DNA from: Verrucomicrobiota bacterium
GTDB taxonomy: Bacteria; Verrucomicrobiota; Verrucomicrobiia; Opitutales; Coraliomargaritaceae
Direction: 5' to 3'
DNA length: 64,000 bases
NCBI GenBank assembly: GCA_039815375.1
Contig: JBCBZJ010000015.1
Span: forward strand, 15,170-79,169
The position numbers and the translations under genes are program-made. The stretch's first letter is position 1. Every line of letters begins with the position of its first letter. The notes below the pieces were generated by a model that had not been told where the DNA came from, ran no database searches, and worked only from the letters and a program-made list of their open reading frames with translations. Below, piece by piece: positions 34,656 through 37,681 of the stretch.

Positions 34656-35765
34656 ATGGAACCAAATTTTGAGAAACTAGCCGAAGTCTTGACCGGCTTT
34701 TCCACCAATTTACAGAAGGATGAACGCGTCCTGATCGATGCTTTTGATATCCCTGACTCAATGGTCGTCGCTCTGGTGCGTGCCGCTCGAGAGCGGGGGG
34801 CCGTGCCCTTTACAAATATCCAGCGAGCTCGAATCAGTCGGGAGCTGGTAAATGATGTGGATGTGAACCAGTTCGAAACGCAAGCTGGCTGGGAGCTGGC
34901 CCGTATGGAGAAGATGGACGCTTACATTGCCATTCGGGGCTCGGATAACATCTTCGAAATGTCAGACGTGGATCCGGTCAAGGTCAACCGAGTGATGCGT
35001 GCGATGAAGCCAGTTCTCGACCATCGCGTGAACAAGACCAAATGGGTGATCCTACGCTGGCCGACGCCGGCCATGGCTCAGCAGGCCATGATGAGCACGG
35101 ACAGCTTCGAAGACTTTTTCTTCCGTGTCTGCACTCAGGATTACTCGCGCATGACCGAGGGCATGGCTGCTCTTAAGGAACTGATGGCGGCGACGGATCA
35201 AGTTGAACTGAAGGGTCCTGAAACCGACTTGCGTTTTTCCATCAAGGGCATTGGTGCAATCGCCTGCGGCGGAACCCATAACATTCCTGACGGCGAGGTG
35301 TTCTCCTGCCCGGTCAAGGACTCCGTTGAGGGAGAAATCACCTACAATGCACCGACGGTTTATCAGGGCGTCTCTTTTGATCGTATTCATCTTAAGTTCG
35401 AGCAGGGTAAAATCGTCCACGCCGACGGGACCAACGCCGATCGGTTGAACGAGATTCTCAACTCCGACGAAGGCGCCCGCTACATCGGAGAATTCGCAAT
35501 CGCCTTTAACCCCCATATTCTCGAGCCGATGCGCGATATCCTCTTTGATGAGAAGATTGCGGGCTCTTTCCATTTCACCCCCGGCCAAGCCTACGAAGAG
35601 GCTGACAATGGGAATCGCTCGCAGGTCCACTGGGATATGGTCCAGATCCAGCGCCCCGAGTATGGTGGTGGTGAAATCTGGTTCGACGGCGAGCTCATCC
35701 GCAAGGATGGTCTCTTTGTGAAGGATGAGCTGAAGAAGCTGAATCCGGACTATTTGCTCGCCTGA
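34656..35765 (+). CDS. M29 aminopeptidase (AmpS/AmpT-like)
   Basis: [36 protein letters not shown]. Confidence 0.92.
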
Positions 35766-35780
35766 TAGAAAAATAAGCTA

Positions 35781-35802
35781 GGAGGCTTGCCCTCAAGCCT
35801 CC
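35781..35802. other. 9-bp hairpin between the aminopeptidase gene and dnaX (possible terminator)
   Basis: GGAGGCTTG-ccct-CAAGCCTCC. Confidence 0.5.
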
Positions 35803-35824: not shown

Positions 35825-36982
35825 ATGGAGCAAGGTTATCAGGTTATCGCACGCCGCTGGCGCCCGAAGCAGTTCGATGAGCTGGTAGGGCAGGACCACA
35901 TTGTCCGCACGCTGCGCAATGCGATTGAAACCAAGCGTATTGCCCATGCCTACCTGTTTGTTGGCCCGCGCGGCACGGGTAAGACCAGCACGGCCCGGCT
36001 TTTCGCCAAGGCCCTCAATGCAGAGGGTGGGCCCAGCGCCAAGCCGGATAACGAATCCGAAATCAGCAAGGCCATTATGGGTGGTTCCTGCATGGACGTG
36101 ATCGAAATCGACGGTGCCTCCAACAACTCCGTCGATCAGGTCCGCGATCTGCGCGAAGACTGCCAATACGCGCCCACTCAATGCACTTATAAGATCTACA
36201 TTATTGACGAAGTGCATATGCTTTCTACTGCTGCATTTAATGCGTTGCTCAAGACACTTGAAGAGCCACCCGGGCATGTGAAGTTTTTCTTTGCGACGAC
36301 TGAGGCGCACAAGGTTCTACCGACCATTGTTTCTCGCTGCCAGCGCTTTGAGTTTCGTCCCATTTCGGATGCTGTTATTGCGGAGAAACTTCTTCAAATT
36401 TCTGAAGCTGAAGGTATCAAGGTCGAAGCTGAGGCACTGAAGTCCATCGCCCGCCTCGCCAATGGCGGGATGCGTGACGCGCAGTCCATTCTTGATCAAA
36501 TGATTTCCTTTTGCGGGAGCGAAATCAGCGAAAGCGATGTGCTTGATGTCTACGGTCTGGTTTCTTCCGAGCGCATCGCTGAGCTCGGTAAAGCTCTGGG
36601 TTCGCTTGATTTCCCCGCTATTATTGCAGCAGTTGATGGTTTTGTCGAAGAAGGGCGGGACCTCTATCGCGTCTTGCTCGATCTTGAAGCTCATGCCCGT
36701 GGGGCTTTACTTGATGCCATTCAAAATGGTGGCTCAACAGAAAAGCTTGGCACCAGTCTAAGCACCGAGTCGATCATGCGAATGCTGGATGCACTCCATC
36801 GTGGTGAGGCATCCGTCCAGAAAGGACTTTCTGAAAAGGTTAACTTCGAGGTCGTGCTACTTAAGGCGGCCGAGGAGTCCCGCTCTCGGGCCATTGATAG
36901 TCTGATTAAACAAGTCTCTGCGGCTGCTTCGACAGGCTCAGGACAATCCGGCGGCGGAACCGGCGAAAAAAAAAAGCCCTAG
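35825..36982 (+). CDS. dnaX: DNA polymerase III gamma/tau, zero-frame (gamma-like) product
   Basis: [46 protein letters not shown]. Ends GEKKKP* at an A10G run. Confidence 0.96.
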
Positions 36983-37347
36983 TTCCGCCACCGCCTAAAA
37001 GCGAAGCTGCCTCCGAATTGGAGGACGATGCTTTGCAGGTTGCGGTCGAGCAAAGTGGGGTGGGTTCACCGGCACTTGGAGAGCAGCCTGTTGTCGGTGC
37101 CGAGCGAACCACCTCCGAATCAGAAGAGGAGCGCTTTGCTGCCTATGCCGAAATGGAAGCCGCGGCACCGCTTGAGGTGGCTGAAGCGTCTCCCTCACTT
37201 CAGCCGAGTGCGAAGGCTGAACCTAGTCTCACTCTCCAAGATGCCGCCAAGTGTCTCAGCCCGAAAGTCCTTCAGGCGCTGGAGGACCAATTTAATGGCA
37301 GTCTTACCGAGGTGCGTGCACCGGACGACAAAGACCAGTTCTTCTAG
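36973..37347 (+). CDS. dnaX: -1 frame C-terminal extension of DnaX (tau-specific part)
   Basis: Open from the A-run: [19 protein letters not shown]...[20 protein letters not shown]...DQFF*. Pro/Ala/Glu linker followed by a tau-like terminal motif. Confidence 0.7.
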
Positions 37348-37396
37348 AAATTTACGGTTGACGGGCAGGGTGCTGAACTCAACCTCCTTTCCTTTG

Positions 37397-37475
<79 letters not shown>

Positions 37476-37681
37476 ACCTAGGCCGAAGCTTCGGCTGGCT
37501 GCGTTGCTGCATTTATCTTGTTGATCTAGCAGTTGTATAGCCTTTCGGGAGGCTATTGGATAGGTCAACTTAGAGTCGTTTTCCAGTTTGCAACAGCCTG
37601 GTAAGTAATTGGGACTAGTTACACATGAGGTCGAAATATTCTTTGATCTTGTGGCTGCTGAAATCCATAGTTTCATAGATA

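Follow-up and report, generated by a model that had tools for sequence, protein, structure and literature searches.

A kept poly-A run at the gamma/tau junction of dnaX in Opitutales, followed by a tail in any of three reading frames

At the gamma/tau junction of dnaX, 137 of 152 loci from the bacterial order Opitutales carry a run of nine to thirteen A's (A9-A13), and the tail beyond the junction lies in the -1, the 0 (in-frame) or the +1 frame, in a direction that is conserved in the window's family but not across the order. The window is the whole 64,000-nucleotide stretch of DNA that was analysed. Its dnaX layout, in which the zero frame gives gamma and the tail lies in -1, was called 'reversed polarity' in a preliminary description of this DNA; the term is true of the window and its family, and comparison of the loci indicates that the -1 layout is one of three interchanging states in Opitutales and no fixed design. 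We consider it probable that tau is made from this dnaX by RNA polymerase slippage on ten A's; a tail found in -1, 0 and +1 around one fixed run in an essential gene would be strong, if indirect, support for slippage at the level of transcription.

A split dnaX gene and its tail

In the window, dnaX is divided between two neighbouring ORFs, and the zero frame ends immediately past the poly-A site. The features of the locus are as follows:

35825-36982, + strand: zero-frame dnaX ORF for a gamma-sized clamp-loader subunit of 385 aa (AAA+ domain, lid, domain III), assigned with Pfam, TIGR02397 and the E. coli tau/gamma chains
36966-36975, + strand: A10 run, predicted slippage site, from the exact letters; conserved among relatives
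36980-36982, + strand: TAG ending gamma in the zero frame, two codons past the A10 run
36973-37347, + strand: -1 frame extension of 124 codons, the putative tau-specific part, with a low-complexity linker and a conserved C-terminal motif
37231-37344, + strand: conserved C-terminal motif of DnaX (two helices followed by F-x-G and a brief extended segment), from profiles and the helices of a model
37400-37475, + strand: tRNA-Ala(GGC), directly 3' of the dnaX extension

The zero-frame protein matches Pfam families PF13177 and PF22608, and PF12169 weakly; it scores above the TIGR02397 cut-off and aligns with the E. coli tau/gamma chains at E~1e-66. Its ORF ends in GAA AAA AAA AAG CCC TAG, which contains A_AAA_AAG in the zero frame, and the run at 36966-36975 consists of exactly ten A's. 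The -1 frame is open from 36910 to a TAG at 37345-37347 (124 codons if counted from 36973), and its linker, rich in Ala, Glu and Pro, leads into the motif. The +1 frame reaches a stop 8 codons after the A10 run, the two non-tau frames thus closing at 3 and 8 codons. A shift of one base at the run is predicted to give a 507-aa DnaX fusion. The preliminary description had reported the split gene, the run, the -1 frame open to 37347 and the length of the fusion, all of which we re-found in the sequence; its view that the default product is gamma-sized agrees with a zero frame that stops at 385 aa, and its view that tau needs recoding with a zero-frame stop two codons after the run and a tail in -1. 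Annotation pipelines would call a truncated dnaX and a small hypothetical ORF here.

A search of the genome found one dnaX only and one copy only of the tail motif. The tRNA-Ala(GGC) gene at 37400-37475 bounds dnaX, so an ORF at 37028-37540 is unlikely to be real. Upstream of dnaX lies a gene of 369 aa (34656-35765) with no NCBIfam match at E<=0.01, which we take to resemble an aminopeptidase; between the two, at 35781-35802, a GC hairpin of 9 pairs has a terminator-like score on both strands.

Is the extension truly a part of DnaX? The sequence comparisons indicate that it is the C-terminal part of tau, homologous to DnaX C-termini, in line with what the preliminary description proposed from the sequence alone; the matches are to the C-termini of continuous DnaX proteins. 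A profile of 54 continuous tails gives the -1 frame of the window 22.2 bits, versus -2.4 and 3.8 bits for the other frames. We built a second profile on the 50 C-terminal residues of 83 continuous DnaX proteins from outside the order; when the window was cut into 1,464 segments in six frames, its motif had the best score with this profile (12.4 bits, E 0.014), the runner-up reaching 5.2 bits. The two profiles align weakly with each other (hhalign probability 44%, E 2.3e-4), and the outside-order profile agrees with the frame call at no more than 88 of the 152 loci. Among the 22 loci of the window's family, variability over the motif is highest at the third codon position (0.43, 0.33 and 0.70 for positions 1, 2 and 3), and the -1 frame has 0 stops, with 103 and 161 in the others. 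Additionally, the same tail motif is fused in frame in related genomes. No meaningful match to the extension or motif was found in Pfam or NCBIfam, and both motif alignments gave chance-level matches only against PDB sequences. An AlphaFold model of the 48-aa motif shows helices (pLDDT 78, pTM 0.43) and had no fold match at E<=0.001.

Tau is established as a binder of the polymerase alpha subunit, as set out in PMC4756838, and the tail of the window would be expected to bind this subunit as well. The replicative DnaE is present in the genome by Pfam search. A second Pol III alpha homologue of ~1,100 codons (L213 / L215, on G000:C30) presumably resembles the error-prone DnaE2 type.

The run and the tail frame across Opitutales

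Among 221 Opitutales genomes, 215 gave a match and 218 dnaX matches were obtained, of which we examined 140 of the best 150 and, from the 68 weakest, a group largely of small genomes, 18 (3, and 15 later); with about 50 of the 68 outside the survey, the frequencies of run and frame given here overstate the Opitutales-wide share. The main set comprises 153 genomes, 152 of them with the junction region. The run, at residue ~368-394 of DnaX, is an A10 in 108 loci, an A9 in 25, an A11 in 3 and an A13 in 1; it is shorter in 15. Of the 152 loci, 62 from 10 families have the tail in -1, 34 from 8 families have it in +1, and 56 from 25 families have it in frame; the run is kept in 41 of the in-frame loci. 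Tail frames are mixed within 8 of 34 families. In other words, dnaX is split in 96 of the 152 genomes examined; every split locus has a run of at least nine A's (96/96), and every locus with a shorter run is in frame (15/15). Since related genomes are not independent samples, we place no weight on a Fisher test that compared run length with split state. The preliminary description had suggested an alignment for a kept run with the same offset, and the answer is divided: the run is kept in 137/152 loci and the family is uniformly in -1 (22/22), but the offset varies across Opitutales.

Tail frames were called by a profile trained only on the 54 continuous DnaX proteins. In each of the 137 loci with a run, no other frame stays open as long as the called one. 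Among the 96 split loci, 94 give it a lead of >5 bits over its competitors. Scores were <8 bits for four of the calls. Of the 15 loci added later, 14 could be scored, 8 with a run (4 split in -1, 4 in frame) and 6 without. Named MAGs of Opitutaceae and Puniceicoccaceae carry the same A-run site, which fits the placement of the window in Opitutales.

Some single loci depart from these layouts. In L249, from an Opitutaceae MAG, the zero frame already stops two codons ahead of the A10, and the tail nevertheless lies in -1; we take this for either an error or a broken allele. Two tandem dnaX matches of identical score, 1,770 bases apart, make up L072 (G132:C3), a duplication or an assembly artefact. 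In L199, L201 and L205, from genomes of ~0.9-1.0 Mb, a dnaX of ~360-370 aa lacks the A-run, and the next 900 bases downstream hold no tail motif; these loci possibly encode gamma-only clamp loaders.

A quick maximum-likelihood tree, made from 152 rows and 364 columns of the DnaX core, served to map the frames; many of its inner branches are weak and some branches are long. The three tail-frame states need at least 19 changes on it, versus a mean of 69.2 after shuffling, 15 among the 108 A10-only loci, and 17 after removal of six suspect loci whose run length is unlike that of their sister loci; these counts carry no direction. For gain or loss of the run, 3 changes suffice. Well-supported branches alone force at least four changes for the -1 state, at least eight for the in-frame state and at least eight for the +1 state. 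Some frame switches leave the A10 untouched and come with a one-base difference elsewhere (G200 versus G098), and some switches seen in a single genome may be homopolymer assembly slips.

We hypothesize, as a proposal that we judge evenly balanced between true and false, that the A-run is a slippage switch that works whatever the frame and goes back to the ancestor of Opitutales, that the tail moved among three frames around it at least 15-19 times with the run kept, and that frame and run length together would set the gamma:tau ratio of the replisome in each lineage. Slippage would fill all three frames, so a one-base indel near the run would alter only this ratio and tau would be kept; this is our proposed reason why the tail frame switched often while the run stayed. 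If the proposal is true, these lineages form a natural allelic series for what gamma does and how much of it a replisome needs. The pattern implies long-term selection to keep producing gamma, a subunit whose role is described in PMC4756838 as little studied outside a few model bacteria.

Routes to tau

How might a gene laid out in this way yield tau? RNA polymerase would slip on the A10 and some transcripts would gain one A; A11 transcripts would be read straight through to the 507-aa tau, and unslipped transcripts would give the 385-aa gamma, so that both gamma and tau would be produced. Three elements of this account are inferred: the slippage itself, its place in transcription, and the production of both proteins. 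The reading is favoured because orthologues require both shift directions, -1 in 62 and +1 in 34 of the 152 loci, and shifts in both directions among orthologues are a criterion for transcriptional realignment (PMC3711429, section 10). The codon phase of the run varies (0, 1 or 2), as does the next base (G, C or T), and A_AAA_AAG stands in the zero frame in 31 of 62 -1 loci and in 16 of 22 loci of the same family. Where the preliminary description had left -1 ribosomal frameshifting and slippage by one added A side by side, the comparative data thus favour slippage, and a ribosomal share in -1 lineages is possible.

The stops around the run point the same way. In 127 of the 137 loci with a run, a stop ends each of the two non-tail frames within 15 codons, versus 432 of 2,466 and 148 of 844 control positions (~17.5%); in split loci one of the two near stops is partly true by definition, the zero frame closing within 15 codons in 62 of 62 -1 loci. 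The third frame taken alone closes in 62/62 -1 loci and 30/34 +1 loci, versus 33-51% in controls. Prompt closure of both frames fits slippage because transcripts would reach three frames and gamma must end promptly in each. Runs of nine or more A's are the threshold reported for slip-prone runs (PMC1088944). The genome encodes tRNA-Lys(CTT) and two copies of the TTT lysine tRNA, and possession of two lysine tRNAs has been suggested to favour slippage over frameshifting (PMC5009743).

The A10 of dnaX is the sole A10 inside any ORF of at least 150 codons in this 3.56 Mb genome. Coding A-runs of nine or more number 3, versus ~29 expected from synonymous-codon shuffles; by the same shuffles, runs of 5-6 are not depleted, and the drop at nine is sharp. 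The depletion of long coding A-runs could come from replication slippage instead. The genome's other 10-mer run is a single T10, 3' of a GC hairpin, which looks like a terminator.

Several local elements were examined as well. A +1 model based on a shifty stop was rejected, since AAA-stop covers only 7 of the 34 +1 loci. In the window, 36949-36964 pairs with 36976-36993 in a stem that holds the run in its loop (z -2.6; flank duplex z -5.1); we rejected such a stem as a stimulator of general importance, since z falls below -2 in no more than 3 of the 22 loci of the family. Within the 45 bases that precede the run, a hairpin passes the same threshold in 14 in-frame loci out of 41 and in none of the 22 from the window's family, and is possibly lineage-specific.

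Ribosomes might instead shift by -1 at A_AAA_AAG, in the manner of E. coli, alone or on top of slippage; we regard this route to tau as unlikely. It is attractive in that the heptamer stands in zero-frame phase in the window, and A_AAA_AAG or A_AAA_AAC (X_XXY_YYZ type) occurs in 48 of 62 -1 loci. There is also a mild enrichment of SD-like pairing upstream, at or below -7 kcal/mol in 12/62 -1 loci versus 1/41 in-frame and 0/34 +1 loci (window, -5.0 kcal/mol). A two-ORF dnaX of Chlorobium is named as a frameshift candidate, unpublished there, in PMC5009743, and a preprint gives 14% shifting in vitro for a bare dnaX site (bioRxiv 10.1101/2025.10.02.679949). However, such a shift gives no account of the 34 +1 loci or of the 41 in-frame loci that keep the run, ten A's are present where six would suffice, and C replaces G after the run in 6 of 22 family loci. 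A hairpin in the window starts ~25 nt after the run and is not conserved (z -1.85); a conserved downstream hairpin was not found, z falling below -2 in only 4 of 62 -1 loci, and no Rfam frameshift element appeared at E<=1. The presence of tRNA-Lys(CTT) likewise argues against ribosomal shifting.

It is very unlikely that the tail is a gene of its own, with TTG 37018 as the start of a small partner protein. The sequence does offer an ORF of 109 aa, and ATG, GTG or TTG precedes the motif in 86 of 95 split loci, but in 9 of the 95 the stretch from run to motif lacks any start codon and in 58 it lacks an ATG; moreover, in-frame fusion of this motif in relatives speaks against a separate protein, and two genes would leave the conserved A-run unexplained.

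A mutational switch in the DNA itself (replication slippage or phase variation), by which cells would differ in genotype and not in transcripts, is highly improbable. Close relatives do differ in run length and frame (A10/A11 in g67 and g15, A9/A10 in g72). On the other hand, length is tightly fixed, at A10 in 22/22 family and 108/152 Opitutales loci, contigs spanning the A10 have no gap, and a gamma-only allele would leave the cell without tau, the genome having no second copy of the tail.

Least probable, and largely refuted by the sequences at hand, is an assembly error in a continuous A11 gene: homopolymers are error-prone and the spanning evidence consists of contigs and not raw reads, but 23 independent same-family assemblies, single-contig G014 included, share the A10 and the -1 offset, and a gapless contig from a second sample spans the run. 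In all, assembled contigs of two public runs span the A10 in this way: one is from X1, which may be the source, and the other, from X3 (record 17), is 154 bases long, has a depth of 2.5 and belongs to another sample from that study. Among same-family relatives with an intact region, all 23 (21 of the main set and 2 later) have the A10 and the long frame in -1, and with the window's locus 22 of 22 family loci of the main set keep the A10; two family genomes were left out, G003 (locus cut by a contig end) and G007 (no dnaX match). We thus take the A10 and the -1 offset to be genuine rather than errors of assembly, because 23 relatives share them. The preliminary description had named as grounds for doubt an A11 in the true sequence, relatives without the run and an unrelated downstream ORF; what we find are contigs without a gap at the run, relatives that keep it and a tail evidently homologous to DnaX C-termini.

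Known systems and loci beyond Opitutales

A poly-A split dnaX had been described before in other lineages, as the preliminary description supposed. Antonov et al. (2013, PMC3711429) list a GeneTack cluster, COF_239165634 by its id in PMC4066793, of 17 two-ORF dnaX genes from 12 genera in which tau needs recoding, all described there as -1 and nine with A10, and they propose transcriptional realignment; the reversed layout is repeated in PMC5009743. The window's gene resembles theirs in its adjacent ORFs, its plain reading to gamma, its -1 offset and its A10, which fits their range of 7-10 A's at the junction. Unlike that set, all in -1 as presented there, Opitutales hold -1, +1 and in-frame forms of one site. 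The window's dnaX is, then, of the two-ORF type known since 2013, and to it the comparison of loci adds three-frame switching around a kept run. The 2013 and 2016 papers, in the passages concerned, left the mechanism of two-ORF dnaX open. We found no paper on a +1 two-ORF dnaX or on three-frame switching in Opitutales in the open literature; subscription journals were mostly uncovered.

Thermus thermophilus, where slippage is transcriptional and on an A9, is alike in three respects: many A's in a row where gamma and tau part, a stop soon after in each non-tau frame, and two types of lysine tRNA (PMC1088944, PMC5009743). By the account in these sources, tau is there in the template frame and slippage gives gamma, whereas the template frame of the window gives gamma and stops at 385 aa; the Thermus layout is found in 41 Opitutales relatives. 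With E. coli dnaX, a case of -1 programmed ribosomal frameshifting, the window shares the heptamer in phase and the arrangement of one gene for two nested clamp-loader subunits. In contrast, the shifted product is the short gamma in E. coli and would be the long one in the window; the E. coli heptamer (A_AAA_AAG) and upstream SD are at best partly conserved in Opitutales, and the downstream stem-loop is not conserved; and the window's genome has a CTT lysine tRNA, where the E. coli type has UUU as the sole one, and relatives that shift both ways.

Within the phylum, an A9-A10 run was absent from all 6 loci that were scored in other orders of the window's class; in other classes of Verrucomicrobiota it occurred at the same place in 7 of 17 complete loci (4 split in -1, 3 in frame; L177, L178, L181, L182, L173, L185 and L186). 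These counts are not frequencies, as the loci were partly picked for short ORFs. Outside Opitutales, in a sample of the best 80 of 599 matches in one 64th of the collection, 8 of 74 scored dnaX loci have an in-frame A9-A11 at residue 379-426 with the other frames closing within 10 codons: L264, L265, L270, L286, L296, L297, L304 and L324, from Ignavibacteriota (2), Planctomycetota (2), Fibrobacterota (1), Thermodesulfobacteriota (1) and Bacteroidota (2). These eight are candidate Thermus-type slippage sites, and in-frame runs of this kind in five other phyla suggest that gamma made by slippage is far commoner than the few described cases.
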